Assembly: GCA_035367155.1 (NCBI GenBank)
Contig: DAOSJI010000002.1
Location: 38,786 to 102,785, forward strand
Reading direction: 5' to 3'
DNA length: 64,000 nt
Source of the DNA: Bacilli bacterium
GTDB lineage: Bacteria; Bacillota_I; Bacilli_A; RFN20; CAG-826
Shown here: positions 38,364 to 56,511 of the stretch, piece by piece
Layout: the number at the start of each line of letters is the position of its first letter
Position numbering within the stretch: the stretch's first letter is position 1
The notes under the pieces: generated by a model
Told to the model about the DNA's origin: nothing
The model's input: the letters and a program-made list of their open reading frames with translations, nothing else
The model's database searches: none
Made by a program: the position numbers and the translations under genes

Positions 38364-39274
38364 TGAAAATTAGATTTAGCGAAGAAGTTAGGGACGCCCT
38401 TAAAAATAAAAGACCCCTAGTAGCACTTGAAACAACTATTATAAGTCACGGAATGCCTTATCCTCGAAACATTGAAAATGCTTTAGAGGTAGAAGAAACT
38501 ATTAGAAAAGAAGGGGCAATTCCAGCGACAATTGGAATAATTGAAGGTGAAATTGTCGTAGGTTTAACAAAAGAAGAAATAATTGAATTTGGCAAACGAA
38601 AAGATATTATTAAGTGTTCGCTTAGAGATTTAGCTTTTGTTTCTTTAAAAAAGAAATGGGGTTCAACCACAGTAGCGGCTTCAATCAATTTAGCAAAAAA
38701 AGCAGGTATAGATGTTTTTGTAACTGGTGGTATTGGAGGTGTTCATCGAAACGCAGAAATGACCTTTGATATATCTGCTGATTTAGATGAACTCGCAAAA
38801 ACACAAATAATTACTGTATGTGCGGGCCCTAAAGCAATTTTAGATGTTGCTAAGACGGTTGAATATCTAGAAACAAAAGGGGTTCCTACTATAGGATATA
38901 AAACTAGCAAATTACCGCTTTTTTATACGCCGACAAGTAAATTTAATGTAACGCATAAACTTGATTCAGAGCAAGAAATAGCAGCAATCTATGCAAAACA
39001 AATTAACTTAGGGTTACCTCAAGCAATACTTGTATGTAATCCAGTTCCTAAAGATGCTTCCTTTACTTTAGAAGAAGCTGAAGATTTAATAAAATTAGCT
39101 TTAAAGGAAGCTAAAGCAAAAGGAATCAAAGGAAAGGAAGAAACGCCTTTTCTACTTAGTAAAATTAATGAACTCTCAAAAGGTCGCTCTCAATTTATTA
39201 ACGAAGCATTAATTATTAATAATGCAAAAGTAGGAGCTAAAATAGCAATCTGTTTAAAAAAGGAGCTTAGTTAG
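38363..39274 (+). CDS. psuG: Pseudouridine-5'-phosphate glycosidase
   Basis: ALETTIISHGMPYPRN and GGIGGVHR motifs. TAATG overlap with the ATPase gene. Confidence 0.9.
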   Translation: MKIRFSEEVRDALKNKRPLVALETTIISHGMPYPRNIENALEVEETIRKEGAIPATIGIIEGEIVVGLTKEEIIEFGKRKDIIKCSLRDLAFVSLKKKWGSTTVAASINLAKKAGIDVFVTGGIGGVHRNAEMTFDISADLDELAKTQIITVCAGPKAILDVAKTVEYLETKGVPTIGYKTSKLPLFYTPTSKFNVTHKLDSEQEIAAIYAKQINLGLPQAILVCNPVPKDASFTLEEAEDLIKLALKEAKAKGIKGKEETPFLLSKINELSKGRSQFINEALIINNAKVGAKIAICLKKELS

Positions 39275-39278
39275 TTTT

Positions 39279-39830
39279 ATGAAAACACAAGTAAAACTAC
39301 GATTGCAGTTAAAGCAATTTTTAGCAAATGAACCATTAGATACAATAACGGTAAAAAGACTCGCTTCTTCGTGCGGAATTAACCGTCAAACTTTTTACTA
39401 TCACTATCGGGATATTTATGAATTACTAGCAGATGTTTATATTAATGAAAAAATACCAAATTTAGATAAGGTCATTACATGGGAAAAAGCACTTGATCAA
39501 ATTTTTAATTACATTATAAATAATCGACAATTTATTAATAATACTGCACAAAGTGCGGGTCATGATTTATTAGATGCCTTTTTTAACAATGTCTTTTACA
39601 ATGTGCTATTAAACGAAATTAATATTATTGATTCGTCAAAAAAATTAACTGAACAAGAAGTTAGGTTTTTATCTTCTTTTTATAGTGCGGGTTTTGCAAA
39701 TATTGTGATGCAGTGGATAGATGGGTCTCAAGAAGAAGCTCCATTAAGTGTAATCGATCGATTGATTAATTTTTTTGAAGGTAGTATTGAAAGAGTAATA
39801 CAAAGGTATTGTAGGAAACAAAATGAATAG
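39279..39830 (+). CDS. TetR-family transcriptional regulator (DhaS-like)
   Basis: N-terminal HTH ITVKRLASSCGINRQTFYYHYRDIYEL. Confidence 0.8.
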   Translation: MKTQVKLRLQLKQFLANEPLDTITVKRLASSCGINRQTFYYHYRDIYELLADVYINEKIPNLDKVITWEKALDQIFNYIINNRQFINNTAQSAGHDLLDAFFNNVFYNVLLNEINIIDSSKKLTEQEVRFLSSFYSAGFANIVMQWIDGSQEEAPLSVIDRLINFFEGSIERVIQRYCRKQNE

Positions 39831-41001
39831 TTTTATTTTTCAAATTCCAACCAAATTATATTTCGGCGAAAACCAAGAATATAAAATAGCTGACATTTTG
39901 CAAGCGCTTAATGTAAAAAGACCTTTAATTTTAATTGGTCAACAATCTGTAATTAGAAGTGGTTTATTAAAAATAGTAACGGATATACTTGATGAAAAGA
40001 AAATCGATTATCAAATATATAAAGGAATAACACCAAATCCTGAAATTTATTTTGTAAGAGAAGGTGTAAAAAAAGCAAGAGAGTTTGAAGCTGATTTAAT
40101 TTTAGCAATAGGAGGCGGATCAGTTATTGATGTAGCAAAAGGAATGGCCTGTTCTTATTTTTATAGTGGAGACCCATTAGATTTATTCATTCATACTTAT
40201 CGACCAACAGTCGCCCTTCCGATTGGAGTGATTTTAACTCATGCTGCTGCCGGAAGTGAAATGTCGACAAGTGCTGTTATAAGTGATAGTAAAAATCATT
40301 TTAAACAAGGATATAATCATCAATTGAATAGACCAACTTTTGCTATTTGCAATCCTAAATATACTTTGACATTGCCACCTCATCAAACCGCGGTTGGTAT
40401 TGTTGACATACTAATGCATACATTGGAAAGATATTTTAATAAAAGCGACGAATATGAAGTAAGCGATTATTTTGCTGAGGGACTTTTAAAAGGTGTTATT
40501 GAAGTTGGATACGCTCTAATGAAAAATCCAAATAATTTAAAAGCTAGAGCAAGTCTAATGTTATTTAGTTCATTATCACATTGTGGAATAACAAGTATTG
40601 GTAAAGAAGGACTTATGCCGATTCACGTTCTTGAACATCCAATAAGTGCATTATATCCATCGGTTGCTCATGGAGCTGGATTAGCAGTTATGTGGGGACC
40701 GTGGGCACGTCATTATGTAGAAAAAGATACTGCAAAATTTGTTTCTTTTGCACAAAACGTGCTTCAAATTAATGAACCAAGTTTAGATTGTCTAGAATTA
40801 GCTAAATTAGGCGTTAAACAACTTGATGATTATTTTAAACATTTAAATGTTAAAATAAGACTTCGCGACTATGGTGTTAAGAAGGATGATTTAGTAACTC
40901 TAGCCAAAATTGCGACCAAAAATAAAAAAAGTTCAATTTATCACTATACAGGGTCTTTAACATACGAAGAAGTGCTTCGTTTGTATGAAGAGGCCTATTA
41001 G
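39823..41001 (+). CDS. Iron-containing (group III) alcohol dehydrogenase
   Basis: GGGSVIDVAKG and conserved His-rich metal-site regions. 392 aa. Confidence 0.88.
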   Translation: MNSFIFQIPTKLYFGENQEYKIADILQALNVKRPLILIGQQSVIRSGLLKIVTDILDEKKIDYQIYKGITPNPEIYFVREGVKKAREFEADLILAIGGGSVIDVAKGMACSYFYSGDPLDLFIHTYRPTVALPIGVILTHAAAGSEMSTSAVISDSKNHFKQGYNHQLNRPTFAICNPKYTLTLPPHQTAVGIVDILMHTLERYFNKSDEYEVSDYFAEGLLKGVIEVGYALMKNPNNLKARASLMLFSSLSHCGITSIGKEGLMPIHVLEHPISALYPSVAHGAGLAVMWGPWARHYVEKDTAKFVSFAQNVLQINEPSLDCLELAKLGVKQLDDYFKHLNVKIRLRDYGVKKDDLVTLAKIATKNKKSSIYHYTGSLTYEEVLRLYEEAY

Positions 41002-42136
41002 AAAGAAGGATATTATGAAAAAAGAAGATGTACTAAGTGTCTTTGTTTACCTAGTAATGTTGCTTATAGCATTATTTATAGGACTTAGAATTATTAGCCC
41101 AGCTATTGGAGATCTTAACTATACACAGAAAGAAGCGTATGGATTTGCTATTCTTACAATCGTCGTTGGTGTTTTAATTAATGCTGTTATTTTCGAAGTT
41201 GGACACATCGTAGGGGCATTAATTGGAGGATATAAAATTTTATCCGTTAACATTTTAGGATTATGCATTTTTAGAGCCAATAAAAAATGGCGAGTGGCCA
41301 TAAAAGGCTTTAATGGTTTAACGGGCGAAACAAAGATTTTTGCAAAAAGAGCAAAAGCGAATCCGCGACTTCACTTATTTGGTCCAATCATTTTGTATTT
41401 AATTGAATTTGCAGCTGCTATTCTACTCTTTGTTTTTTTACCAAAAGAAAATGTTGTTCATCATGCCGCATTAATTGTGGCAGGTATTGGGGCAATGCTT
41501 ATTATTTATAATATTATGCCTTTTAGACTTGATACTCTAACTGATGGCTATTATTTAATGCTTTTAAGTAAGAAAGTAAACATCGAAACTTTTAATGAAT
41601 TAATGCGCATTCAATCTTTAGTTAATGATAAAGAAGAAGTAGGTGATATAAAAGTTTTTGAACAAATTACTACTTTAACTGCGACTGTAAATATGTATAA
41701 ATTTTATGAATGTTTGGATGAAAAAAAATATGATGAAGCTATGAAAATATTAAAACCCATTTTGGAAAACAAACACAAATTAGAACCAGAGATACATGGG
41801 CGAGCACTAGCACAAAAATTGTATTTATTACTGATAACAAAACCAAAAGAAGCTGTGGAACTTTTTTGGAATGATGAGTTAGGTGCAAAAGAAAAGAAAT
41901 TTATTGCTAATGACGTCAGCATGGAATCTTTAAGATCATATTTACTTTTTAACGGACTTGTTAGCAAGAGTGAAAGTGAAAGCGCTTATGTTGTATCACG
42001 TGTTCCTAAAGCATTGAAAACAAGAATGGATGAAAGAAGGAGACAAACAGAAATCGATTTATTCATTCAAACTCTTGAGGTTGTAAGAAAAGAAAATCCT
42101 ACATGGGTTATAGATGATCCAAAAATTAAAAAGTAA
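40985..42136 (+). CDS. Polytopic membrane protein with an M50/site-2-protease-like core and a soluble helical C-terminal domain
   Basis: FEVGH sits where M50 enzymes have HExxH, and NIMPFRLDTLTDG resembles NxxPxxxLDG. An alternative start is MKKEDV at about 41015. Confidence 0.45.
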   Translation: MKRPIRKKDIMKKEDVLSVFVYLVMLLIALFIGLRIISPAIGDLNYTQKEAYGFAILTIVVGVLINAVIFEVGHIVGALIGGYKILSVNILGLCIFRANKKWRVAIKGFNGLTGETKIFAKRAKANPRLHLFGPIILYLIEFAAAILLFVFLPKENVVHHAALIVAGIGAMLIIYNIMPFRLDTLTDGYYLMLLSKKVNIETFNELMRIQSLVNDKEEVGDIKVFEQITTLTATVNMYKFYECLDEKKYDEAMKILKPILENKHKLEPEIHGRALAQKLYLLLITKPKEAVELFWNDELGAKEKKFIANDVSMESLRSYLLFNGLVSKSESESAYVVSRVPKALKTRMDERRRQTEIDLFIQTLEVVRKENPTWVIDDPKIKK

Positions 42137-42217
42137 ATAACATTGCAAAAACACTATTAAAGGTTCAAAAAAGGCATCAAACCCTTTAGAATAAAACACA
42201 AAATGTGAGGTATAAAT

Positions 42218-43339
42218 ATGAAACTAATGACAATTTTAGGAACAAGACCCGAAATCATCCGTCTTTCCGCAATATTAAAAAAAGCTGACAAATATTTTGA
42301 CCATGTTATTGTTCACACAGGCCAAAATTACGATTATGAATTAAATGCCATTTTCTTTGAAGAACTAGAAATTCGTAAACCTGATTATTTTTTGGAGTGT
42401 GTAGGGAAGAATTTAGGAGAAACTTTAGGCGGAATTTTTTCGAAATCGTATGAAATAATTTTAAAAGAAAAACCAGACGCCATCTTAATTTTAGGTGACA
42501 CAAATAGTTCTCTAGCTGCAATTGCTGCAAAAAGATTAAAGGTTCCAGTTTTTCATATGGAAGCCGGAAATCGCTGTTGGGATTGGAATGTACCAGAAAT
42601 GATTAACCGCAAAATAGTTGATCATATAAGTGATATCAATCTACCTTATACTGAGAATAGTCGAAGATATTTAATAAAAGAAGGAATTGATCCAAAAACT
42701 ATTTTCGTTACTGGTTCTCCCCTTTATGAAGTGTTAAACGAATATAAAGAAAAAATAGATAATTGTGATGTTCTTAAAAGATTAAATTTAAAGAAAAAAC
42801 AATATATTTTACTCTCAGCACATCGAGAAGAAAATATTGATATTGAGAAAAATTTCGAAAAATTGATGTGTAGCGTCGAAGAAGTGGCAAAAAAATATGA
42901 TATGCCAATCGTCTATTCAATGCATCCTCGGAGTAAAAAATGGGTTGAAAAAAGAGGACATCAATTTCCTAAAAACGTTATTGCTCATAAACCTTTTGGT
43001 TTAGTTGACTATTGTTCGCTGCAAAAAAACGCTTATTGCGTTTTAAGTGATTCAGGTACATTGAGTGAAGAGAGTGCTATGTTAGATTTTCCGGGGGTTC
43101 TTATTAGAACATCTACTGAAAGGCCGGAAGCATTAGATGAGGGTTCAATCGTTATAGGAGGAATTGAAAAGGGTAATGTAATTGAAGCTCTTGAATTAGC
43201 AGTGAAAATACACAAAGCAGAAGGAAAGCAACCACTTCATCCATCCTATCTTGTAAACAATGTATCAAGCAAGGTTCTTAAAATTATTCAAAGTTATGCA
43301 AAAATCGTCAATATAACGACATGGTTAAAAGACGAATAG
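42218..43339 (+). CDS. wecB: UDP-N-acetylglucosamine 2-epimerase (non-hydrolysing, WecB/Cap5G-like)
   Basis: GTRPEIIRLS, GDTNSSLAA and HMEAGNRCWD motifs. Confidence 0.9.
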   Translation: MKLMTILGTRPEIIRLSAILKKADKYFDHVIVHTGQNYDYELNAIFFEELEIRKPDYFLECVGKNLGETLGGIFSKSYEIILKEKPDAILILGDTNSSLAAIAAKRLKVPVFHMEAGNRCWDWNVPEMINRKIVDHISDINLPYTENSRRYLIKEGIDPKTIFVTGSPLYEVLNEYKEKIDNCDVLKRLNLKKKQYILLSAHREENIDIEKNFEKLMCSVEEVAKKYDMPIVYSMHPRSKKWVEKRGHQFPKNVIAHKPFGLVDYCSLQKNAYCVLSDSGTLSEESAMLDFPGVLIRTSTERPEALDEGSIVIGGIEKGNVIEALELAVKIHKAEGKQPLHPSYLVNNVSSKVLKIIQSYAKIVNITTWLKDE

Positions 43340-43355
43340 AACACGGAGTTAAATT

Positions 43356-44123
43356 ATGTATCGAAACTTTTTTAAACGATTGCTTGATATTATTGCTTCA
43401 TTTATTCTTTTAGTCTTTTTGCTTTTTCCATTTATGATAATAGGTATTATAATTCGGGCTAAATTGGGTGGTCCAGTATTTTTTAAACAGAGACGCCCAG
43501 GGAAAAATAATAGAATATTCCATATGTATAAATTTCGTACAATGACAAACGAGCGTGATGAAAACGGCAATTTATTACCAGACAAAGATAGGTTGACTAA
43601 ACTTGGGAAATTTTTAAGAAAGTCTTCTATTGATGAATTACCTCAAATTATTAACATATTGATTGGTGATATGTCGTTTATAGGACCACGTCCAAAACTA
43701 ATTAAAGATGTAATTTTTATGAAAAACGACGAGTGCTTAATTAGGCAAGCTGTTAGGCCTGGAATTTCAGGGTGGGCACAAATCCATGGAAGAAACGAAT
43801 CCACATGGTATCAAGTACTCGAAAGAGACATATATTATGTAAAACATGTTTCTTTCTTTTTAGATGTTAAAATCTTTTTTAAAACAATAGGAGTTATTCT
43901 TTCTCAAAAAGGAATTAACACTCCTGGAGCGGCAACCCACTTTTTATATGCAGACGTTTTACTTAATGATAAAAAGATAACAAAAGAAGAACATAAACGA
44001 TTAAATGCAGAAGCGATTGAAATAGAAAAAGATTTAAACAAAGTTTATGTTTTTGGTAATAAAACAAAATTTAGTAAAGATCAGCTTAAAAAGGAACCAA
44101 AAATAAAAAAAGATAAATCTTAA
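43356..44123 (+). CDS. Initiating phosphoglycosyl transferase (bacterial sugar transferase, monotopic PglC/WbaP-C type)
   Basis: Re-entrant helix N-terminus, plus KFRTM, DELPQ and RPGISGWAQI. There is also a lysine-rich C-terminal extension. Confidence 0.88.
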   Translation: MYRNFFKRLLDIIASFILLVFLLFPFMIIGIIIRAKLGGPVFFKQRRPGKNNRIFHMYKFRTMTNERDENGNLLPDKDRLTKLGKFLRKSSIDELPQIINILIGDMSFIGPRPKLIKDVIFMKNDECLIRQAVRPGISGWAQIHGRNESTWYQVLERDIYYVKHVSFFLDVKIFFKTIGVILSQKGINTPGAATHFLYADVLLNDKKITKEEHKRLNAEAIEIEKDLNKVYVFGNKTKFSKDQLKKEPKIKKDKS

Positions 44124-44124
44124 C

Positions 44125-45252
44125 ATGAAAACCATTACTTTTTTATTGATGTATTATAAACCCGAAAATCATACAATCAATTATGTTTATAATCCAATAA
44201 TTGATGAGTATTTAAAAAATGGATATCGGGTTAATATCGTTGTCCCTAATCCGACTAGAGGGCTTTCTAGAGCAAAAATCAAAGAATATCGAAAAAAAAC
44301 CGAGGAAAAAATAAAAGACAAATTATTTTTATATCGCGTAAATTGTTTTACGTATAGAAAATATAACAAATTAAACTTATTACTTCGCTACTTGTCTGTT
44401 AGTAATAAGTGTGCGAAAAAGTTAAGAAAAATACATTCTGATATTGTTTTTTTACAAACAAGTCCGCCAATTTTTTATGCATATAAAGCTAGTAAGATAG
44501 CTAAAAGAAAAGGTGTTTCGATTATTTATAATGTTCAAGATATTTATCCAGAAAATATTTTTAAAGAAAATCGCTTACTTTATAAAATAATCAATCACTA
44601 TCAAAAGAAAACCTTAAATAACGCAGATGTTATTTCAACGCTTTCTCAAGATATGAAAAAAACACTTCTCAAAAAAGGTAATTTTGAAAATAAAATCAAA
44701 ATCATTCCTAATCCTATAACATATAAGGTTAAAGAATATAGTGAACAACAACTTAAAGAAACTGCTAATAATTATGGATTTAAGAAAGATAAAATTAATG
44801 TCGTTTATGCAGGAAACATGGGTTATTTGCAAGATATAGATGTAATTATTTCTGCCGCAAAGAAGGTCTTAGAAAAGACAAATAAATATAATTTTATTTT
44901 TATTGGTGAGGGTGCTCAAAAAGAACGATTAAAAAACGAAATAAATGATTTGAAAAATGAAAACATAAATATATATACAATGGCACCTATGGAGGTATCA
45001 CCATATATTTATAAATTGGCTGATTTTAATGTTATAAGTTTGTTACCTAATGTTATTTATACTGCTTGTCCACTTAAAACCGCTATGATAATTGAAGCAA
45101 ACAAAAATGTTATAGCGTGTGTTGATGAAGAATCTACATATATAAAAGAATTGAAAGAAAAAGTTAATGATTTAATAGTAATCCCTAATAGGGATGCAGA
45201 AAAATTAGCGAAAGAATTATTACAAAGGTTAAATAAAAATGAAAAGAAATAA
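44125..45252 (+). CDS. GT4 glycosyltransferase (WbuB/WcaI-like)
   Basis: The N-terminal YYKPEN...IVVPNPTRG pattern is typical of WbuB-type GT4 enzymes. 375 aa. Confidence 0.75.
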   Translation: MKTITFLLMYYKPENHTINYVYNPIIDEYLKNGYRVNIVVPNPTRGLSRAKIKEYRKKTEEKIKDKLFLYRVNCFTYRKYNKLNLLLRYLSVSNKCAKKLRKIHSDIVFLQTSPPIFYAYKASKIAKRKGVSIIYNVQDIYPENIFKENRLLYKIINHYQKKTLNNADVISTLSQDMKKTLLKKGNFENKIKIIPNPITYKVKEYSEQQLKETANNYGFKKDKINVVYAGNMGYLQDIDVIISAAKKVLEKTNKYNFIFIGEGAQKERLKNEINDLKNENINIYTMAPMEVSPYIYKLADFNVISLLPNVIYTACPLKTAMIIEANKNVIACVDEESTYIKELKEKVNDLIVIPNRDAEKLAKELLQRLNKNEKK

Positions 45253-46051
45253 AGAAGTACCTTATGGCACTCTTATTGTTAAAGAGTTTACGACAAAGCT
45301 TTTAAAAATAGGGGATCGTAAAATACGGATTTGGTTGCCTGATGGGTATGATGAAAACTATGAAACAGGATATCCGGTTTTATATATGCATGACGGGCAA
45401 AATTTGTTTGAATCTAGCACCTCTTATGCTGGTGAATGGTTTATTGATGAATCGCTTTCAAAGTTAAGTAAGAAAAATAAAAATTTCAAAATGATTGTTG
45501 TAGGAATCGATAATTCTCCTTTACGAATTAATGAAATGAGTTTTCTTTCAATAAAAAAGAGTTGTTATCGCTTTCCTAATAAAAGTTATGAAGGTCAAGA
45601 TTATGCAAAATTTATTGTAGAAGAAGTAAAAGAATATATTGATAAAAATTATAATACGAACCCGAAAATAAATTTAATAGGTGGATCCTCAATGGGAGGA
45701 ATCATCTCCTTTTTTATGGCGTTGGCTTATCCTGACGTTTTTGGGTACGCTTTGTGTTTTACACCAGCTGGAATGTTACATTATCAAAACGAATTAAAAA
45801 AATGGTGCAAAAACGCCATTAAAAACGCAAAAAAGCTACCAAAATTATATTTTATGGTAGGGAAAGGCGATAGGCTTGAACAAATAATTTTTAAATTTAC
45901 TGAGAAATTAATTCCCTTTTTATCTAAACAAGGTTATTCAAAAGAAAATTTGAGGTATGATGTGATAGAAGAAGCTATACATAATGAAAAATCATGGGCA
46001 AAGATTTTTCCGACTGCTATTAAATGGCTTAATATAAGGGAAACGAGTTAA
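45239..46051 (+). CDS. Alpha/beta-hydrolase esterase (putative-esterase family)
   Basis: PVLYMHDGQN and the nucleophile elbow GGSSMGG. Overlaps the upstream GT gene. Confidence 0.7.
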   Translation: MKRNKEVPYGTLIVKEFTTKLLKIGDRKIRIWLPDGYDENYETGYPVLYMHDGQNLFESSTSYAGEWFIDESLSKLSKKNKNFKMIVVGIDNSPLRINEMSFLSIKKSCYRFPNKSYEGQDYAKFIVEEVKEYIDKNYNTNPKINLIGGSSMGGIISFFMALAYPDVFGYALCFTPAGMLHYQNELKKWCKNAIKNAKKLPKLYFMVGKGDRLEQIIFKFTEKLIPFLSKQGYSKENLRYDVIEEAIHNEKSWAKIFPTAIKWLNIRETS

Positions 46052-46097
46052 TTAATATTATGATATAATTAACTAAAGGTGCTTATAGGAGATTACT

Positions 46098-48770
46098 GTG
46101 AACATATTATTAGTTAATGCTAATAACCTTCTTGGAAGAAAGTTTGCCCAAAGATTAAAAAAAGATGGGCAACAATTTTTTCAATACGGAAAAGATGACG
46201 TTAGTAATGAGTCCTTGGAAGAATTGATTGGAAAAAGCAATTTTATTTTTCATTTCGGAAACGAAGACTCTGATCGTAGAAAAGAACAACTTTATCATTC
46301 AAATGTTGTCATTACTAAACAAATAATTGAAACAATAGAAAAGCATAATTTCAAAATACCTATTGTTTTTATATCAACTGCTATAGATGGTCCTAATGAT
46401 TTTGTTGAAGTGAAAAAAGAAGCTGAAACGGAGTTAAAAACATATCAAAAAAGGAGCAAAAATCCAGTTTTTGTTTTAAAAGTTTCAAATGTTTATGGTG
46501 ATGAAAAATGTAATAATTACTATTCGCAAATTTATCATTTGATGAATTTATTAATGGTACAACAACGGCATTCTTCATTTGAAAGTGATGAAATTATCCG
46601 TGTTGTTGAGGTTGAACCATTTGTAGATTTTCTAATAACACTGCTAAAAAAAGAATCATGGAATCAATTAAACCCTCCTCATGTTGATGAATTTAAAATT
46701 AAAGACCTTGTAAAAACAATTAATGAATTTCGAAGGCTTTCTTATGTTCGTAGAACTCCAATTATTGAGACATCAAAAGATTTAGCAGCATATAAGATTT
46801 TTAGATCCTATATATCTCCAAATGCGCCCAAAATAGAATTAAGCGAAAAAGTTAAACCTAATATAGCAATAGAAAAACCAAAAGAAGTTAAAGAAACAGT
46901 TCAACAAAATGACAATGATGTTATGAGAACTAAACTTGATAAGGGATTTATTTATATTGCTGAGTGTGGGATGGAATCTAGCAAAGTATTGGAATCCTTT
47001 AAAAAGAGATTAGAAAATGAAAGCAGTAGATGTTTGTTCGTTGATAAAACCTGGTATGAAACAAATTACCAAAAGTATGTAACGAACATCCAAGCTATTA
47101 CAGAAAACTATGACTTTGTATTAATTGATGGTGTTGGATTAAGTGAAATAAGGGTTCAAATTCTTGCAAACGCATTAGATTATGGCTTTAGGAATAAAAC
47201 GGTTGTAGTTGTTGCCTCAAGAGATAATTTTAATCTTCAGTTAATTTTCATGAAATTGAAAAAACTTCATTTTTCAAAAATTGATGATGAAACAAGAGAA
47301 TCTAGAAAAGGATTTACCGAATATCTTAATAATTTTAAGTCGCTCTTTAAAAAAGAAAAATCTGTAGAAAAGAAAAAAGCAATAATTAAAGAAGAACCCA
47401 AGACGGCCAAAGTTGACATTATGACCGATACAGAAATTAATCAAGCAACTATTGGCAAAAGAAAAGTTTCTAAATTTTTCCTTTTACGTGAATTGTTCTT
47501 TATTGTTTTTATGATTTTGAGTTTAATTAGCAGTAATTTGACTTTTCAAAACGACACTAATACAAATATAAACGCGACAATTACTGCAGCGCATTATCAA
47601 GCAAATCGTGCAGAATCACGATATATCCATGGGTTTTTGAGCTCTAATTATCCTGGTTCAACTGTGGGCGCCAGCAATTTAGAAAACGCCTTCCAATATG
47701 GTAAGGATATTGAAAATGATCAAATTAGTTTTTATGTTACTTGTGTCCAAGGACCAGTGACAGGCGCCAATAGAAGTAGATTTAATATTATTTTTTCTGG
47801 TGGAAATACTATTGCAAACGCTATTGCTTTAAAAGATTATTCTTCAGATGGTCAACTGCTTAAGTATATGAGAGTTGAGCAATATTTATTAGGAGATGAA
47901 ATAGATAAAACTTCGACTAACGAAGAAGCAACGCCTATTTATATTTCTTCAACTTTAGCGGATATTATTATTGAATCTAATGAATTTATAAATAATTACA
48001 GCGACATAATTAATACAACGATAACTCGAACTTATGGTTTAATTAGTGAACAACTAGAAATTAAAAATATTATTTATACAAGCGATAAAAAAGAAAATTA
48101 TGCTGAAAGAGAACACTCAAATCCATACAGTGGAATTGACGAAGGGCTTGGCAAACACCTTAATAAAGTTATTGGACAACCAATTATTTTTCTTTTAGAT
48201 GCTGAACAATTAAATGGTTTTGAGACAAGAATTGAATTTGATGCTTTTCCTAAGGGTAAAGGAATAAAAAAACTGCTTGATAATTATTATAAGGATTTCC
48301 AAGTAATTGAAGGTGTTAACTATACAAAAAATATAAAATTCGGAATTTACAACGATGGAAAATATATTGAAGATGACTTTATATTAAATGATGTTAATGC
48401 ATATTATCAAACCAAAACATCAAGTATTAATTTTACGATGATAATATTTGCGATTTTTTCAATTTTATTTGCTTTTGTGGCAGCTAATATCTTATTAACT
48501 AATTTGAAAGAAGCTCTCAAATATAGCAATAGCAGAGTCCATGTCGTTTTAGGGCTAATTTTTACAATAGTACCAATAATTATTGTTAATTTTGCGATTG
48601 CTTTATACAAAGGTTTATCAAATTATAGTGTTTCAGCAATCGCATTACAAAATACATTTGGTATTATCGCTAACATTGTAATAACACTAGTTATGGCAGG
48701 GTTAACATTGTTCTTTTTCTTTAGTTTAAGAAAAGAAAATTATAGGAAGTCTGAAAGAGAGGCTAAATAA
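46098..48770 (+). CDS. 890-aa chimeric protein: degenerate SDR/CapF-like N-domain, degenerate BY-kinase/ParA-like P-loop domain, then a TM-ectodomain-3TM (FtsX-like topology) module
   Basis: GTG start after a TAGGAG RBS. The Rossmann position reads VNANNLLG. The Walker A position reads AECGMESSKV, and DFVLIDGVGL is Walker-B-like. Hydrophobic helices lie at about residues 470-490 and in the last 130 residues. Confidence 0.5.
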   Translation: MNILLVNANNLLGRKFAQRLKKDGQQFFQYGKDDVSNESLEELIGKSNFIFHFGNEDSDRRKEQLYHSNVVITKQIIETIEKHNFKIPIVFISTAIDGPNDFVEVKKEAETELKTYQKRSKNPVFVLKVSNVYGDEKCNNYYSQIYHLMNLLMVQQRHSSFESDEIIRVVEVEPFVDFLITLLKKESWNQLNPPHVDEFKIKDLVKTINEFRRLSYVRRTPIIETSKDLAAYKIFRSYISPNAPKIELSEKVKPNIAIEKPKEVKETVQQNDNDVMRTKLDKGFIYIAECGMESSKVLESFKKRLENESSRCLFVDKTWYETNYQKYVTNIQAITENYDFVLIDGVGLSEIRVQILANALDYGFRNKTVVVVASRDNFNLQLIFMKLKKLHFSKIDDETRESRKGFTEYLNNFKSLFKKEKSVEKKKAIIKEEPKTAKVDIMTDTEINQATIGKRKVSKFFLLRELFFIVFMILSLISSNLTFQNDTNTNINATITAAHYQANRAESRYIHGFLSSNYPGSTVGASNLENAFQYGKDIENDQISFYVTCVQGPVTGANRSRFNIIFSGGNTIANAIALKDYSSDGQLLKYMRVEQYLLGDEIDKTSTNEEATPIYISSTLADIIIESNEFINNYSDIINTTITRTYGLISEQLEIKNIIYTSDKKENYAEREHSNPYSGIDEGLGKHLNKVIGQPIIFLLDAEQLNGFETRIEFDAFPKGKGIKKLLDNYYKDFQVIEGVNYTKNIKFGIYNDGKYIEDDFILNDVNAYYQTKTSSINFTMIIFAIFSILFAFVAANILLTNLKEALKYSNSRVHVVLGLIFTIVPIIIVNFAIALYKGLSNYSVSAIALQNTFGIIANIVITLVMAGLTLFFFFSLRKENYRKSEREAK

Positions 48771-48771
48771 A

Positions 48772-49788
48772 ATGGAAGATATGAAAGTATTAATTTATTT
48801 TGAAGGCGAAAATATTATTAAAAAAAGCGGAATTGGTCGAGCAATGCGTCACCAAATGGAGGCACTAACATCAGCGAAGGTTAATTTTACAACAAATAAA
48901 AAAGACACCTTTAATTTAGCACACATTAATACTTATGGATTTAATAGCAAACGCCTTCTTAGAAAATGTAAACGAAAAAATATTCCAGTAATTGTACATG
49001 GTCATTCTACTTTTGAAGATTTTCGTAATTCATATCGAGCCTGGCAATTCCTTGCTCTTTTTTACAATAGTTGGCTCAAATATATGTATAGTAGAGCAGA
49101 TTTAATTGTCACCCCAACCTTGTACAGCGAGAATCTTATTAAAAGCTATGGTTATGATGTACCAGTTACTAATTTATCAAATGGATTAAATGTAGAAGAA
49201 TATAAACCTAGCGAAGATAAAGTAAAACAATTTAAAGATCATTTTAAAATTACAGATGAGAAAGTCATTATCGGTATTGGCTTTTTATTTGAACGAAAAG
49301 GTATTCGTGATTTTATTGAAGTTGCTAGGGCATTCCCCGATATTAAATTTATTTGGTTTGGTCATCTCTCCTGGTTACTAAGACAATCAAAAGTAAATAA
49401 AGCGATAAGAAGAAAGCCAGACAATGTAATTCTTCCCGGCTATATTGCAAACGATATTATTAAGGGAGCGATGCAATATGCTGAAATGCTCTTTTTCCCA
49501 AGCAATGAAGAAACTGAAGGAATTGTCGTTTTAGAAGGGCTCGCTAGTAAGATTCCTGTTCTTGTTAGAGACATCGGAGTGTATGAAGATTGGTTAAAAG
49601 ATGGTGAAAATGCGTATAAAGCACGTAATAATCAAGAATTTATTGAAAAAATTAAATATATAATACATAATGATAATTCCCAAGTAATAAAAAACGGTTA
49701 TCAGACGGCAATGGACCGTGATTTAAGTATTATCGGGCAAAAACTAAAGAAAATATACGAAGGAGTGCGAAAAAAGCATGTCAAATAA
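48772..49788 (+). CDS. GT4 glycosyltransferase (diacylglycerol-glycosyltransferase-like)
   Basis: Intact E-x7-E motif ETEGIVVLE and KSGIGRAM near the N-terminus. The start may be the MKVLIYF ATG at 48781. Confidence 0.8.
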   Translation: MEDMKVLIYFEGENIIKKSGIGRAMRHQMEALTSAKVNFTTNKKDTFNLAHINTYGFNSKRLLRKCKRKNIPVIVHGHSTFEDFRNSYRAWQFLALFYNSWLKYMYSRADLIVTPTLYSENLIKSYGYDVPVTNLSNGLNVEEYKPSEDKVKQFKDHFKITDEKVIIGIGFLFERKGIRDFIEVARAFPDIKFIWFGHLSWLLRQSKVNKAIRRKPDNVILPGYIANDIIKGAMQYAEMLFFPSNEETEGIVVLEGLASKIPVLVRDIGVYEDWLKDGENAYKARNNQEFIEKIKYIIHNDNSQVIKNGYQTAMDRDLSIIGQKLKKIYEGVRKKHVK

Positions 49789-50320
49789 AAAACTTGAAGA
49801 TTATTATGTTTTACTGGCACTTGATGAAGCTACGGCGATGCGCGTAAGAACAATTAAAACTTTGCAAAAAGATTTTAATATGCCTTATCGTCTTTTTTAT
49901 CCGCACCTTACTATTGCTCACTATCCTCTTGCTGAAAAGAAAAAACTAGTCAAAACGATTCGAAAATTATCTAGGAAATACAACCCATTTTCTTTAAACT
50001 TTGTTGATGTTAAATTAATTGACAAGGCACTTATTGCAATAGAAGTAGATAACAATAAAACTCTTGCTGAACTATATCAAAGAGTTCACGATAGTTTGCC
50101 CTATGTTGCAGACAAATGGACATCACCAAGTGAAACTCATTATTTGCCCCATGTTAGTCTGTATTTCAATAATGAAATTGATTTAACAGAAATGCATCAA
50201 CATTTTAAAAAAGGTTTTACTCCATTTAAAGGTGAAGTAGAAGCTCTTGAACTTTCTCTTTTTGACGGCAGGAGTTATACAATAACGCATCGATTTCCTT
50301 TAAAGAAACGCTGGTTTTAA
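49778..50320 (+). CDS. 2H phosphoesterase superfamily protein (LigT / 2',5'-RNA ligase-like)
   Basis: Two H-x-T/S-x motifs, PHLTIAH and PHVSLYF, with appropriate spacing. 180 aa. Confidence 0.7.
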   Translation: MSNKKLEDYYVLLALDEATAMRVRTIKTLQKDFNMPYRLFYPHLTIAHYPLAEKKKLVKTIRKLSRKYNPFSLNFVDVKLIDKALIAIEVDNNKTLAELYQRVHDSLPYVADKWTSPSETHYLPHVSLYFNNEIDLTEMHQHFKKGFTPFKGEVEALELSLFDGRSYTITHRFPLKKRWF

Positions 50321-50345
50321 CTTTATTTTTAAATAATTAAGTAGT

Positions 50346-50380
50346 TTAAAAATGGCCATTAAAATTAATGGCCATTTTCG
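50346..50380 (+). terminator. Rho-independent terminator closing the glycan cluster
   Basis: 12-bp stem aatggccattaa (50351-50362) / ttaatggccatt (50365-50376) running into TTTT. Confidence 0.7.
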
Positions 50381-50456
50381 TTAGATTGAAAAATACCTGT
50401 TTTATAGTAAACTAAATATGCTTAGTTTATAAAACTAAGAAGTTAGGAGAAAACTT

Positions 50457-51206
50457 ATGGAATTAAAAAACGTGATTTCAAAACGATCATATAAAACCGT
50501 TTATGCTGAAGATGGAAAAATCATCAAATTATTTGTCAAGGGTTATCCAAAAACAAATGTTTTTAATGAAGCATTAAATCAAACTAGAATGGAAGATAGT
50601 GAAATTAATGTTCCTAAGGTAATTGAAGTTGTTGAAATTGATGGTTGTTGGGCTTTTATAAGCGAAGAAATAAAAGGTAAAACACTTGAGCAATTGATGA
50701 TTGAAAATCCAGAAAAGTTAGATGAGTATTTAGATTTATTTATTGATACACAAATATTAATGTCTAAACAAAATAGTTTTCTTCTTAACCCGTTAGTACA
50801 TCGAATGAGTCGCAGAATTGCCCGTAGTGAATTACGTGCTACAACTAGATATGATTTTCAAATTCGTTTGGAAGAAATGGAACAATTCCACGAAGTTGTT
50901 CATGGAGATTATAATCCAAGCAATATAATTATTGATGAAAATGGAAAAGTATGGGTTATTGATTGGGCGCATGTTAGTGAAGGTAATGCTGCAGCTGATG
51001 TTGCTAAAACATATTTATGGTTTAATCTACATAATCAAAACGAACTTTCAGAAAAATATTTAAAGCGTTATGTCGAAAGATCTGTAATAGAAGAAAAATT
51101 TATAAGAAACTGGATGCCGTTGGTTGCAGCGTGGATTTTAGACACCGCTTTAGAAGAAAAGAAGCCGTATTTGCGGGATATTGTTAAACAAGAGATCATG
51201 AGGTAA
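50457..51206 (+). CDS. Small APH/choline-kinase-family phosphotransferase
   Basis: Catalytic loop HGDYNPSNIII and IDW metal-binding motif. 249 aa. Confidence 0.7.
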   Translation: MELKNVISKRSYKTVYAEDGKIIKLFVKGYPKTNVFNEALNQTRMEDSEINVPKVIEVVEIDGCWAFISEEIKGKTLEQLMIENPEKLDEYLDLFIDTQILMSKQNSFLLNPLVHRMSRRIARSELRATTRYDFQIRLEEMEQFHEVVHGDYNPSNIIIDENGKVWVIDWAHVSEGNAAADVAKTYLWFNLHNQNELSEKYLKRYVERSVIEEKFIRNWMPLVAAWILDTALEEKKPYLRDIVKQEIMR

Positions 51207-51210
51207 AGCT

Positions 51211-52647
51211 ATGAATATAAAATTTGAAACACAAATAAGTGAATTAAAACATAAGGTTTTGGTAAAGGTTGCAACTTTGGCTTATCAAGATAGACTTCTT
51301 GAAGGATACCGTTATATTCCTCAAGAAATAAAACCTGGACCAACTGCAACAATGCGCTGTTGCAATCATAAAGAACAAGCGATTCTGCGAGAAAGAGTAA
51401 AGTTAGCATGCGGTGGGGATAGTCGTAACCCCAACATTATGGAAGTAATTAAAATTGCTTGTGATGAATGTCCTTTAGGTGGCTATACAGTAACTAATGT
51501 TTGTCGAGGCTGTATTGCACACTATTGCCAAGAAGCATGTCCAAAAAAATGTATTTATATTGATCCTATTGACCATACTGCTAAAATCGACAAAAGCAAA
51601 TGTATTAACTGTGGATTATGTGCTAAAGCATGTCCTTATAATGCAATCATTAATTATAGAAGACCTTGTGAAACGGCATGTCACGTAGATGCAATTACAA
51701 TTGATCAATATGGAGCATGTGAAATTGATAATAACAAATGTGTCTCGTGTGGGCACTGTGCAGTAAAATGTCCTTTTGGAGCAATTATGGATAAATCATA
51801 TCTTTTAGATGCGATTGATATTTTAAAAGATAAAAAGAATGAAAAATATAACAAATATGCAATTCTTGCACCTGCTATTGCTGGTCAATTTAGGGGAGTG
51901 AGTTATGAACAAGTAGTTACGGGTATTAAAAAACTTGGTTTCACTCATGTTGTTGAAGCGGCTTTAGGTGCTGATTTAGTTGCTATTGCTGAATCTCAAG
52001 AATTAATTGAAAAAGGCTTTTTAACTTCAAGTTGTTGCCCCGCCTTTGTTGAATTAATTAAAAAACACTATCCAAGTGTAGCACCACACATTTCACATAA
52101 TTTAAGTCCTCAAGCAACGATTGCAAAGTATATAAAAACTAATGATAACACTGCAAAAATAGTATTTATTGGTCCGTGCATGGCAAAAAAAGCAGAAATT
52201 AAAAAGACAGAAGAATCAAAATGGACAGATGTGGTTTTAACATTTGAAGAACTTTTGGCTCTTTTTGTTAGCCGAGAGGTTGATTTAGATTCTCTAGAAG
52301 CAACCCCGTTAACTGATGCAAGTTATTATGGAAGGATTTTTGGTAGATCTGGAGGATTAACCGAAGCCGTTACTCAAGCGATAAAAGAACTTGAAGTCGC
52401 CGGCTTTGAGTTTAAACCCTTAGTGTGTGATGGAATAGTTAACTGTAGAAGTGCACTTAATAAAGCTAAAGGAGATACTAAAGATTTTAATTTTCTTGAA
52501 GGGATGGCCTGTGAAGGCGGATGTATTGGTGGACCAGCGGTAATTAGTAAAGGAATTCGAAATAAAATAGAAGTTGATAAATTCGCCAAAACAACTACAA
52601 AAGAAACTATTAAAAGTTCAATTAAGGATGTAGAAAAAAATGATTGA
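51211..52647 (+). CDS. [FeFe]-hydrogenase-like protein with N-terminal ferredoxin-type cluster domains
   Basis: H-cluster-type motifs SSCCPAF, GPCMAKKAE and EGMACEGGCIGGP. 4Fe-4S motifs CINCGLCAKACP and CVSCGHCAVKCP. Confidence 0.8.
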   Translation: MNIKFETQISELKHKVLVKVATLAYQDRLLEGYRYIPQEIKPGPTATMRCCNHKEQAILRERVKLACGGDSRNPNIMEVIKIACDECPLGGYTVTNVCRGCIAHYCQEACPKKCIYIDPIDHTAKIDKSKCINCGLCAKACPYNAIINYRRPCETACHVDAITIDQYGACEIDNNKCVSCGHCAVKCPFGAIMDKSYLLDAIDILKDKKNEKYNKYAILAPAIAGQFRGVSYEQVVTGIKKLGFTHVVEAALGADLVAIAESQELIEKGFLTSSCCPAFVELIKKHYPSVAPHISHNLSPQATIAKYIKTNDNTAKIVFIGPCMAKKAEIKKTEESKWTDVVLTFEELLALFVSREVDLDSLEATPLTDASYYGRIFGRSGGLTEAVTQAIKELEVAGFEFKPLVCDGIVNCRSALNKAKGDTKDFNFLEGMACEGGCIGGPAVISKGIRNKIEVDKFAKTTTKETIKSSIKDVEKND

Positions 52648-52990
52648 TAAAAAAATATATGATGAGGTTATCGCCTTTAGTAGGGATCGAGATTGGGAAC
52701 AATATCATACTGGAAAAGATTTAGCAGTTAGTCTTGTTTTGGAAGCTTCTGAATTACTTGAGGTATATCAATGGTCAGGAAGTGACCAATGGGAAAACAC
52801 CAAAAAAGAAAAAATAGAAGAGGAATTAGCAGATATTTTAATGTATGTAATTTTAATTGCAGATGCTTATAAACTTGATTTAAATGTAATTTTGAAAAAC
52901 AAATTGAGTACCAATAATAAGAAATACCCATTGGAAATGAGTAAAGGTAGCAAGGAAAAATATGATGAGCTCAAAAGAAAAAAAAGATAA
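52640..52990 (+). CDS. MazG-like nucleoside triphosphate pyrophosphohydrolase
   Basis: EASELLE and EELADILMYV metal-binding helices. 116 aa. Confidence 0.8.
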   Translation: MIDKKIYDEVIAFSRDRDWEQYHTGKDLAVSLVLEASELLEVYQWSGSDQWENTKKEKIEEELADILMYVILIADAYKLDLNVILKNKLSTNNKKYPLEMSKGSKEKYDELKRKKR

Positions 52991-53225
52991 AATATTAAAA
53001 ATAATAGCGACAATAGGTGGCGTTTTACTATTAGTAGCAGGTATGGTAATACTGGGGTATGGAATCATTAAGTATTTTGGTGCTTTGATGCATAATAGTG
53101 ATTTAGAAACTGGTCAACAAGCCATTGAGACAAGCATTTTACCTTTTATTATTAGTTCCCCATTACTCTTTGGTGGTTTTTTCTTAATAGTTTTAGGTGT
53201 TGGAAAGAAAAAAACAAAATTATGA
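52962..53225 (+). CDS. Small two-TM membrane protein
   Basis: 87 aa with two hydrophobic helices and lysine-rich ends. Overlaps both neighbours, suggesting translational coupling. Confidence 0.5.
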   Translation: MMSSKEKKDKILKIIATIGGVLLLVAGMVILGYGIIKYFGALMHNSDLETGQQAIETSILPFIISSPLLFGGFFLIVLGVGKKKTKL

Positions 53226-54115
53226 AAAAAAACAAAGGCCGTGTAAAACAAAAAAACGAAGAGTATCAAGTAAAAGAAACTTCGCAACTTTTTGATTTTT
53301 TAATGGAAAATCTTAAAGGAAGAAGTCGGAATAATATAAAAAGTCTTTTAACGAGAAAACAAATTTTAGTAAATGATATTGTAGTTTCGCAATACAATTT
53401 TGAATTGGTAAAGGGTGATGTAATAAAGGTAACACCATTTCGTAATACAGTAACGAACAAAATGAAATTACCTATCATCTACGAAGATGATATGTTAATT
53501 GTTATTAATAAACCCACTGGACTTCTTTCAATAGCAAGTGATAAAGAAAAAGAAGCTACGGCATATCGATATGTTAACGAATATCTAAGGCAAGAAAATC
53601 CTAATGCGAGAGCCTTTGTGTTGCATCGACTCGATAAAGAAACGTCTGGGATTTTGATGTTTTCTAAAACACCCAACTTAGTAAATGCATTGCACAAAAA
53701 CTGGAACCATTTCGTCACAAAACGAGCCTATTTTGTAGTGATAAAAGGAAAAATACCCCAAAATAGCGGAGTTATTAAATCCTATTTGCACCAAAGTAAA
53801 ACACAGCAAGTTTACTCTGGTGCTAAAACTAAAGACGCAAAATATTCTGAAACTCATTACGAGTTTTTAAGAGGAAATAATGAATTTTCACTTTATGATG
53901 TTAAATTACAAACGGGAAGAAAAAATCAAATAAGAGTACATTTTAGAGATTTAGGGTATCCAATTATTGGTGATGATAAATATAACGGAGAAACTACGAA
54001 AATTAAAAGACTAGGCCTTCATGCTTACGAGATAGTTTTTAAAAATCCAATTACTAAGAAAATAATGTCATTTAAAACCCCAATACCCAAAGAATTTAAT
54101 CTGCTTCTCAAGTAA
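53222..54115 (+). CDS. RluA-family pseudouridine synthase with an N-terminal S4-like domain
   Basis: Catalytic motif HRLDKETSGILMF. Confidence 0.9.
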   Translation: MKKNKGRVKQKNEEYQVKETSQLFDFLMENLKGRSRNNIKSLLTRKQILVNDIVVSQYNFELVKGDVIKVTPFRNTVTNKMKLPIIYEDDMLIVINKPTGLLSIASDKEKEATAYRYVNEYLRQENPNARAFVLHRLDKETSGILMFSKTPNLVNALHKNWNHFVTKRAYFVVIKGKIPQNSGVIKSYLHQSKTQQVYSGAKTKDAKYSETHYEFLRGNNEFSLYDVKLQTGRKNQIRVHFRDLGYPIIGDDKYNGETTKIKRLGLHAYEIVFKNPITKKIMSFKTPIPKEFNLLLK

Positions 54116-56130: not shown

Positions 56131-56511
56131 ATGGACAAAAAAGAAACAAATTTAATTATTGTTATTATCAATTCAGGATTTGTAGATCTTGTTATGGATG
56201 CCGCAAAAGCAGCTGGAGCCGGTGGAGGAACGGTCCTTCACGGCAGAGGAACTGGAAACAAAGAAATTGAAAAACTTTTTGGTATTACAATTAGTCCAAA
56301 TAAAGAAATTGTCTTAATCGTAGTTCCTAATCAAATTAAAGATAAGGTTATGAAAGCTATTTATAATAATGCTGGCCTAGATACAGAAGGGCAAGGTATT
56401 ATCTTTTCACTACCGCTTGATCGAGTTGTAGGAGTAAATTTCAATCATTTTAACAAAAATGCTGAAAACAACAATACAACTGATGATACAAAAAATGGTA
56501 ACCAAGAGTAA
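56131..56511 (+). CDS. PII-like signal-transduction protein paralog 2
   Basis: LIIVIINSGFVDLVMDAAKAAGAGGGTVLHGRGTG is typical of the PII-like proteins that follow DUF1538 genes. Confidence 0.6.
   Translation: MDKKETNLIIVIINSGFVDLVMDAAKAAGAGGGTVLHGRGTGNKEIEKLFGITISPNKEIVLIVVPNQIKDKVMKAIYNNAGLDTEGQGIIFSLPLDRVVGVNFNHFNKNAENNNTTDDTKNGNQE

Follow-up and report, generated by a model that had tools for sequence, protein, structure and literature searches.

The gene clusters most like the one described here are cap5/cap8 of Staphylococcus aureus (Cap5E/F/G, CapM, CapL) and the fnlABC(wbjBCD)-wbuB(wbjE) clusters of Escherichia coli O26 and Pseudomonas aeruginosa O11, in each of which the genes form one operon. 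Our subject is a run of seven plus-strand genes in a 64,000-nucleotide stretch of the genome of a Bacilli bacterium (assembly GCA_035367155.1); we call this whole stretch, positions 38786-102785 of contig C2, "the window". As in those clusters there is an FnlC/Cap5G-type epimerase, a CapM-like priming enzyme and a WbuB/CapL-like glycosyltransferase of family GT4, and genes of the FnlA, FnlB, Wzx and Wzy_C types are present in the same genome. Unlike those clusters, the genes are spread over at least four contigs, the FnlA- and FnlB-like proteins score under the equivalog cut-offs of their families, no CapA/B-like chain-length regulator was detected, and no peptidoglycan or LCP genes were found in the genome, so the acceptor of the glycan must differ. 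The seven-gene run is probably a genus-specific juxtaposition, in which the priming module of a dispersed Wzx/Wzy pathway of the N-acetyl-L-fucosamine (L-FucNAc) type adjoins a gene for housekeeping glycolipid synthesis and genes for an orphan membrane protein of 890 amino acids (aa) and a 2H phosphoesterase. Such a dispersed pathway for an L-FucNAc glycan, in a reduced and probably wall-less Firmicute, would be a known kind of system.

A second likeness, which is one of logic only, is to the pneumococcal pathway for teichoic acid and type IV lipoteichoic acid (LTA), with its Bac_transf phosphoglycosyl transferase (PGT), LicD, TacF flippase, repeat-unit polymerase and TacL ligase that acts onto glucosyl-diacylglycerol (Glc-DAG). 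The same kinds of enzyme appear to be encoded here, namely a Bac_transf PGT, LicD with a cytidylyltransferase, a Polysacc_synt flippase, two Wzy_C proteins and DAG-glycolipid synthases, although here there is probably no wall and no LCP protein was found. The TacL protein of Streptococcus pneumoniae, which has a Wzy_C domain, has been proposed to transfer the chain linked to undecaprenyl pyrophosphate (Und-PP) onto a glycolipid anchor (PMC5727136).

The genome (892 kb in 26 contigs, about 32% guanine plus cytosine, GC) is 87% complete with 0% contamination, and the genome-wide negative results given below hold for this assembly. Family calls for the seven proteins were made with Pfam and NCBIfam profiles at their curated cut-offs. 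Relatives are labelled G001 and so on; G001 is a sister species in the same genus (3 contigs), and 39 relatives were screened for orthologues of the BgsA-type glycosyltransferase. A sibling metagenome-assembled genome ("MAG: Erysipelotrichaceae bacterium isolate AS23ysBPME_272") is 82% identical and fully syntenic.

Pathway genes inside and outside the locus

A first-pass annotation of the window, made from its letters alone, had found no FnlA and only a degenerate FnlB beside the epimerase, and had read the sugar-nucleotide pathway as incomplete. This is right for the window and wrong for the genome. An FnlA-like gene is present on contig C1, surrounded by unrelated genes (RimO, nuclease); its best match is TIGR04130 (527 bits, below the cut-off of 730; PseB 315). 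A full-length FnlB/WbcJ-like reductase is encoded on C5 (NF047837 399 bits, cut-off 500), where it adjoins a UDP-sugar dehydrogenase gene. Thus fnlA, fnlB and fnlC are split over contigs C1, C5 and C2 and do not form one operon in this genome. The window's "WecB" is 48-69% identical to the epimerase inside the contiguous fnlA/B/C operons of eight sister genera (G006, G011, G012, G013, G014, G018, G019 and G021; order fnlA-fnlB-fnlC or fnlA-fnlC-fnlB), so we regard it as the orthologue of the gene in the fnlC position, and an FnlC-type substrate specificity is predicted for it by this orthology. The FnlA and FnlB orthologues of the same eight genera are 63-83% and 43-54% identical, respectively, to the genome's own proteins. 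By these comparisons the sugar-nucleotide pathway appears to be complete but scattered.

The first of the two GT4 enzymes in the array, which we call GT4a, has its only close orthologue in G004 (53% identity), immediately downstream of fnlA, and because of that position a WbuB-like role as L-FucNAc transferase is probable. The L-FucNAc lead that the first-pass annotation had taken from the pairing of epimerase and WbuB-like enzyme is borne out by the G004 arrangement and by the orthology of the epimerase to the fnlC-position gene. The GC content of GT4a (25.6%, compared with 32% for the window) is consistent with a variable insert specific to the type of glycan, and both it and the adjoining esterase gene are absent from the corresponding G001 locus. 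The esterase (PF00756) is likewise a variable gene, and its product would be cytoplasmic, with no signal peptide or transmembrane (TM) segment predicted.

It had also been noted that the array contains no Wzx, Wzy or Wzm, and an unconventional export step had been proposed to account for this. The observation holds: profile searches gave no Wzx, Wzy or ABC-2 family match for any of the seven proteins, and the only membrane segments among them are in the PGT (one or two hydrophobic segments) and the 890-aa protein (four TM segments). The proposal does not, as two Wzx-type (Polysacc_synt) proteins, both over the Pfam cut-off, and two Wzy_C proteins are encoded elsewhere, in clusters that have no primer. 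One protein of each type belongs to a conventional glycan cluster on the minus strand of C5, whose CDP-glucose 4,6-dehydratase and glucose-1-phosphate cytidylyltransferase score 421 bits with TIGR02622 and 368 bits with TIGR02623, respectively. The other Wzx is part of a GT4-GT4-Wzx operon on C3, and the other Wzy_C gene, on C12, is solitary. No priming transferase was found in the C5 cluster or in the C3 operon, and the window PGT is the sole PF02397 (Bac_transf) match in the 87%-complete genome, which has no match to PF00953 (MraY/WecA); the simplest reading is therefore that this one PGT would prime the lipid carrier for both of them. It has one strong hydrophobic helix (residues 15-33) and a lysine-rich tail of about 70 aa. 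PDB searches with both Wzy_C proteins, intended to separate ligase from polymerase, gave no match, and either protein may be a polymerase or a ligase. The sole ABC-2/ABC_tran pair in the genome (C1:62199-63820) lies between chromate-transporter genes and greA, a non-glycan context, and is not convincing as a Wzm/Wzt transporter.

Two features near these genes may be mentioned. In the C5 cluster the 426-aa protein (C5:44726-46006), which has no Pfam or NCBIfam match, adjoins an FrhB/FdhB-like 4Fe-4S protein (C5:46109-47350), and this pairing may resemble the companions of polysaccharide pyruvyl-transferases. At C3:31550-38153 a gene for a 909-aa BspA-type leucine-rich-repeat surface protein (PF13306 420 bits) is convergent to the GT4-GT4-Wzx operon.

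The relatives supply the connection among these loci. In G014 a single minus-strand cluster has the order fnlA-fnlC-fnlB-PGT-(513-aa open reading frame, ORF, on the other strand)-GT2-406 aa-Wzy_C-GT4-GT4-GT4-GT4, and so unites homologues of genes that are on C1, C2 and C5 here. Its Wzy_C and that of C5 share 33% identity, one of its GT4 enzymes has 35% identity to the GT4 of the C5 cluster, and another has 25% identity to GT4a. G018 has fnlA-fnlB-fnlC-Ugd, the Ugd being 48% identical to the C5 dehydrogenase, followed by a weak Wzx-like match and a PGT on the opposite strand; and G004 has a homologue of the C12 Wzy_C protein directly beside fnlB. These three comparisons suggest that the genes on C1, C2, C5 and C12 belong to one pathway.

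The order of steps that we infer would be as follows. FnlA, FnlB and FnlC, from C1, C5 and the window respectively, would make UDP-L-FucNAc or a related 6-deoxy-L-N-acetylhexosamine (6-deoxy-L-HexNAc) nucleotide, the window PGT would load the first sugar-phosphate on undecaprenyl phosphate (Und-P), and GT4a would add the 6-deoxy-L-HexNAc. The glycosyltransferases, LicD and CDP-sugar enzymes of the C5 cluster, and possibly those of the C3 operon, could then complete the repeat unit, which a Wzx would flip and one of the Wzy_C proteins would polymerise, these conventional enzymes acting in trans from other loci. The second GT4 of the array (Dgs/BgsA/CpoA-type), together with an Mgs-like GT4 encoded on C5, would make a diglycosyl-diacylglycerol membrane lipid, and the 890-aa protein would be a dead FnlB relic fused to an orphan membrane module. 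If so, the apparent lack of flippase, polymerase and sugar-nucleotide enzymes is an artefact of reading one window: a genome of roughly 1 Mb would scatter over several loci one conventional pathway that a relative keeps in a single cluster, which calls for care when glycan pathways of reduced genomes are annotated cluster by cluster.

Table 1. Genes of the seven-gene array, its closing hairpin, and related genes on other contigs (positions without a contig name are those of the window)
Feature	Position	Strand	Length, matches and content
UDP-HexNAc 2-epimerase, WecB/Cap5G family	42218-43339	+	373 aa; PF02350 302 bits, TIGR00236 wecB 246 bits (cut-off 210)
Small monotopic PGT, Bac_transf, CapM/PglC-like	43356-44123	+	255 aa; PF02397 208 bits, residues 7-182
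GT4a, WcaI/WbuB-like GT4	44125-45252	+	375 aa; PF13439, PF00534; NF007640 103 bits, below cut-off
Alpha/beta-hydrolase, "putative esterase" family	45239-46051	+	270 aa; PF00756 94 bits
Orphan 890-aa membrane protein	46098-48770	+	GTG start; NF047837 on residues 1-243, E 2e-17
Second GT4, IagA/BgsA/CpoA/Dgs-type diacylglycerol glycolipid glycosyltransferase	48772-49788	+	338 aa; NF053513, NF049987
2H phosphoesterase, LigT/CPDase-like	49778-50320	+	180 aa; PF13563 44 bits (cut-off 27)
Palindromic hairpin, probable bidirectional intrinsic terminator	50349-50382	+	AAAATGGCCATTAA..TTAATGGCCATTTT; dG -18.5 kcal/mol, z -5.0
FnlA-like gene	C1:23380-24432		350 aa
FnlB/WbcJ-like reductase	C5:21484-22584		366 aa
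C5 glycan cluster	C5:39168-51477	-	GT2, RmlC-like isomerase, SDR epimerase, CDP-glucose 4,6-dehydratase, glucose-1-phosphate cytidylyltransferase, Wzy_C, 426-aa protein, FrhB-like, LicD, cytidylyltransferase, GT4, Wzx
Wzx-type protein	C3:34299-35786
Wzx-type protein	C5:50047-51477
Wzy_C protein	C5:43456-44793
Wzy_C protein	C12:7289-8752		solitary
Mgs-like GT4	C5:14895-16067	-	NF049988 245 bits over full length (cut-off 400)

Layout and conservation of the seven genes

The seven plus-strand ORFs, their tight spacing (gaps of 16, 1, -14, 46, 1 and -11 nt, in order) and the closing hairpin are all as the first-pass annotation had described them. The hairpin, whose existence is confirmed by folding, is a perfect palindrome, and none of 200 shuffled sequences folds equally well; a scan for consensus terminators does not call it because its T-run lies partly within the stem.

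The array is embedded in about 18 kb (35919-54115) of co-directional genes that overlap or nearly abut and whose functions are unrelated. The tight packing extends upstream of the cluster to 35919 through genes for a P-type ATPase, psuG, TetR, Fe-ADH and a membrane protein, and after the glycan genes and the 2H gene come those for an APH-like kinase, an [FeFe]-hydrogenase-like protein, MazG and RluA; the order of the whole run is kept in G001 and in the 82% sibling. In G001 only 11 nt, with no hairpin, separate the 2H gene from the APH-like kinase gene downstream of it. In view of the upstream array of unrelated genes and this run-on in G001, a shared orientation is only weak evidence of a shared function, and in this lineage the neighbours of a gene say little about what it does. 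Directly upstream of the cluster (40985-42136) is a gene for a 383-aa protein with five TM segments that is 62% identical in G001; neither this protein nor that of a 339-aa ORF at 27898-28917 has a Pfam match at E <= 0.001.

Among the relatives that were compared, the seven genes are not conserved together. At the G001 locus the identities are 80% for WecB, 63% for the PGT, 33-34% for the 890-aa homologue, 57% for the BgsA-type enzyme and 73% for the 2H protein. Orthologues of the BgsA-type glycosyltransferase (44-60% identity) are present in 14 of the 39 relatives, and in ten other genera the surroundings of the gene, about 8 kb on each side, contain none of the other six cluster genes. G012 is a partial exception, with fnlA-fnlB-fnlC about 7 kb from the BgsA-type gene (the CapF-like gene and the fnlC-type epimerase gene being 8-10 kb downstream). 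In G003, G007, G008, G018, G019, G020, G032 and G035 the PGT and BgsA orthologues either are on separate contigs or have 25-95 kb between them. The earlier view of the array as a single functional unit is thus contradicted by the BgsA-type enzyme, which stands alone in ten genera, and by the lack of GT4a and esterase genes in G001. That view had named two findings that would speak against it, a flippase or polymerase within the cluster and a lack of co-conservation; the second is what we see in part, for the BgsA-type enzyme, GT4a and the esterase, and the first is not seen.

The 890-aa protein and the glycolipid synthase

The degenerate CapF/FnlB-like N-domain that the first-pass annotation had recognised in the 890-aa protein is real. 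It matches NF047837 with 63 bits, and the rest of the protein has no family match. By inspection NANNLLG replaces GxxGxxG and a Phe replaces the tyrosine of YxxxK, and the cupin domain typical of FnlB/CapF/WbcJ reductases is missing. After this FnlB/CapF-like domain (residues 1-245) the protein appears to have an alpha/beta domain in its middle part (about 280-400) and a first TM segment (460-478); an ectodomain of about 300 aa then leads to three more predicted TM segments at the C-terminal end (782-800, 816-834 and 848-866). Full-length relatives are found only within the genus (82% and 33-34% identity), and a search of genome contigs with the protein returned only the 82%-identical sibling. 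A 597-aa protein (P0082) has the middle and membrane modules in common with it and lacks the SDR-like domain; the dead FnlB part therefore appears to be a genus-level accretion, and is plausibly what remains of an fnlB formerly next to fnlC and the PGT gene, the arrangement seen in G014. The 890-aa protein keeps its position but diverges fast. In its G001 homologue the first 59 codons are in a different frame from the rest, with the break at an A8 run (gttaaaaaaaacgc; L026:12931-13130, G001:C1:648931-649130); an error of assembly, a frameshift that makes a pseudogene, and switching at a slippery homopolymer are possible causes.

The topology of the protein (cytoplasmic N-terminal part, first TM segment, large ectodomain, three C-terminal TM segments) is like that of MacB/FtsX-type permeases, but it has no Pfam FtsX or MacB_PCD match and no ABC ATPase domain. 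Homology to FtsX was sought by profile (no PF02687 match), and, against the MacB-type protein of the window, by BLASTP (nothing) and by hhalign (probability 0.2-0.3%). A reading of the middle domain as a degenerate BY-kinase/CpsD-like P-loop domain was rejected, as no hidden Markov model (HMM) supports it and conservation of the P-loop-like stretch does not extend to G001; no homology to PCP/Wzz proteins, BY-kinases or P-loop proteins was detected. PDB profile searches with the middle domain and with the membrane module gave nothing significant; the best match for the middle domain, dethiobiotin synthetase (E 0.34), hints only faintly at a MinD/ParA-like fold and is not evidence for one. AlphaFold2 predictions of the 890-aa protein from three sequences have a mean pLDDT of 38; only the N-domain is moderately confident, and the model of the membrane module is unusable. 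Nothing in the sequence supports a role of this protein as an exporter.

The gene that follows has much clearer affinities. The alDGS/CpoA/BgsA/IagA proteins are monotopic GT4 enzymes of the cytoplasm, with glycosyl-diacylglycerol as their substrate. They add the second sugar onto monoglycosyl-diacylglycerol, CpoA being the GalGlcDAG synthase of S. pneumoniae, and the glycolipid synthase pair of Acholeplasma laidlawii regulates the properties of the bilayer (PMC3901891). The second GT4 of the array matches NF053513 (IagA/BgsA; 438.3 bits, cut-off 460) and NF049987 (Dgs; 435.5 bits, cut-off 500), in both cases over residues 4-334. It thus resembles alDGS of A. laidlawii, CpoA of S. pneumoniae, BgsA of Enterococcus faecalis and IagA of Streptococcus agalactiae in its full-length, high-scoring matches, and a candidate partner, the Mgs-like GT4, is encoded in the genome; it differs in that the scores are just under both cut-offs and the Mgs-like gene lies elsewhere, unlike the neighbouring pairs cpoA-spr0982 and bgsA-bgsB. 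We regard it as a putative housekeeping synthase of a membrane glycolipid or anchor, conserved separately from the cluster, and the Mgs-like and Dgs-type enzymes fit a housekeeping glycolipid route in a wall-less cell. The Mgs-like gene is translationally coupled to one for a 450-aa LPG_synthase_TM (MprF-flippase-like) protein (C5:14895-17419, minus strand), and the two may be a glycolipid synthase and flippase pair. The 2H phosphoesterase, in which both the HLTI and HVSL motifs are present, is encoded next to the glycolipid glycosyltransferase in this genus only and not beside the BgsA orthologues of other genera.

Cell wall, acceptor and competing explanations

There is no match in the genome to MraY/WecA (PF00953), to the transpeptidase domain of penicillin-binding proteins (PBPs; PF00905) or to LCP (PF03816), for which 12, 10 and 7 of 14 bacterial controls, respectively, do match. 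The organism is therefore probably wall-less, subject to the missing 13% of its genome. None of nine large multi-TM proteins read by eye resembles LtaS, for which no formal search was made. A probably wall-less bacterium that keeps a full pathway of the Und-P/Wzx/Wzy type, with a single primer, puts the acceptor of the polymer in question. With neither wall nor LCP the acceptor would be a lipid, a protein or the medium, and the candidates are accordingly a glycolipid (by the logic of lipoglycans and type IV LTA), surface proteins (through a PglL-like Wzy_C), or release as capsule or exopolysaccharide.

The first of these acceptors leads to an explanation, in our view unlikely, in which the neighbours in the array are functionally coupled. 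A polymer built on Und-P and flipped and polymerised by the remote Wzx and Wzy_C proteins would be ligated by a WaaL/TacL-like Wzy_C onto the diglycosyl-DAG made by the adjacent BgsA/Dgs-type enzyme, and the 890-aa protein would be a membrane scaffold or co-polymerase with its dead UDP-sugar-enzyme domain inside and its large ectodomain outside. Polysaccharides on diacylglycerol-type anchors are found as the lipoglycans of Acholeplasma and Anaeroplasma. No PBP, MraY or LCP gene was found, hence there would be neither wall nor LCP to receive a polymer; there are two Wzy_C proteins, one of them solitary; LicD and the cytidylyltransferase of the C5 cluster are teichoic-acid-like; and both species have kept the order PGT-890 aa-BgsA-2H, in spite of an identity of just 33-34% for the 890-aa protein. 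The role proposed for TacL would be a precedent in S. pneumoniae (PMC5727136), where the CpoA/Spr0982 pair makes the glycolipids (PMC3901891). Outside the genus, however, no PGT, Wzy_C or 890-aa family gene occurs less than about 8 kb from the BgsA-type gene, unrelated genes of the window typically stand in long co-directional arrays, there is no ground for giving either Wzy_C a ligase rather than a polymerase role (the PDB searches were empty), and the 890-aa protein has no detectable PCP/Wzz, BY-kinase or FtsX homology. We are as doubtful that the order PGT, 890-aa protein, diglycosyl-DAG synthase marks a lipoglycan assembly line, in which the 890-aa protein would couple cytoplasmic priming to assembly outside and its dead FnlB domain would be a UDP-sugar or enzyme-docking module; if true, this would be, to our knowledge, the first genetic account of lipoglycan synthesis of the Mollicute type.

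Protein glycosylation is less likely still. A short Und-PP-oligosaccharide would be flipped by Wzx and moved en bloc to surface proteins or lipoproteins by a PglL/PilO-like Wzy_C, and GT-C enzymes of the YfhO and PMT_2 types would add further sugars outside. The Wzy_C family does include O-oligosaccharyltransferases of the PglL/PilO type, two Wzy_C proteins and the GT-C enzymes are present (YfhO-like in the window, PMT_2 at C6:37591-39312), and the organism is apparently wall-less and has large surface proteins such as the BspA-type protein beside the C3 Wzx; but C5 looks like a cluster for a repeat-unit polymer (Wzx, Wzy_C, several glycosyltransferases, LicD and a 6-deoxyhexose pathway), and neither an acceptor nor an oligosaccharyltransferase specificity can be read from sequence. 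Least probable of all, and to us very improbable, is the original reading of the seven genes as a self-contained, rewired short-glycan pathway whose product exits without Wzx, Wzy or ABC proteins, for example through the 890-aa protein. The spacing of the genes is tight, no flippase or polymerase family is matched within them, and the 890-aa protein has four TM segments and a large ectodomain, being MacB/FtsX-like in topology only. Yet conventional Wzx and Wzy_C genes are present outside the array, at loci without a PGT, FnlA- and FnlB-like proteins are likewise encoded on other contigs, G014 has the gene set as one conventional cluster, and the seven genes are not co-conserved; moreover, without FtsX homology by hhalign or a detectable transporter family, four TM segments make a weak case for an exporter of a lipid-linked glycan. 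The dispersed pathway with incidental neighbours, which we prefer, has its own difficulties. A second PGT, or an MraY or PBP, could lie in the part of the genome that is missing. The FnlA and FnlB matches are the best ones for these two proteins, but their scores are under the NCBIfam equivalog cut-offs, so that the sugar could be a related 6-deoxy-L-HexNAc (L-QuiNAc, L-RhaNAc or L-PneNAc). Finally, the order WecB-PGT-890 aa-BgsA-2H has been kept in both species of the genus while the 890-aa protein diverged to 33-34% identity, and this could reflect selection for a juxtaposition that we treat as incidental.

The two GT-C proteins are of some interest in themselves. The PMT_2/PMT-family glycosyltransferase encoded on C6 has 573 aa and 11 TM segments (PF13231 61 bits) and would be a transferase that acts outside the membrane and depends on polyprenyl-phosphate-sugar. 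The YfhO-family membrane protein (1158 aa; 56459-59935, plus strand, 6 kb downstream of the cluster) matches PF09586 with 209 bits from residue 462 onward and has a long extra multi-TM N-terminal part; it is syntenic in G001 (59% identity), and is a candidate extracytoplasmic glycosyltransferase.

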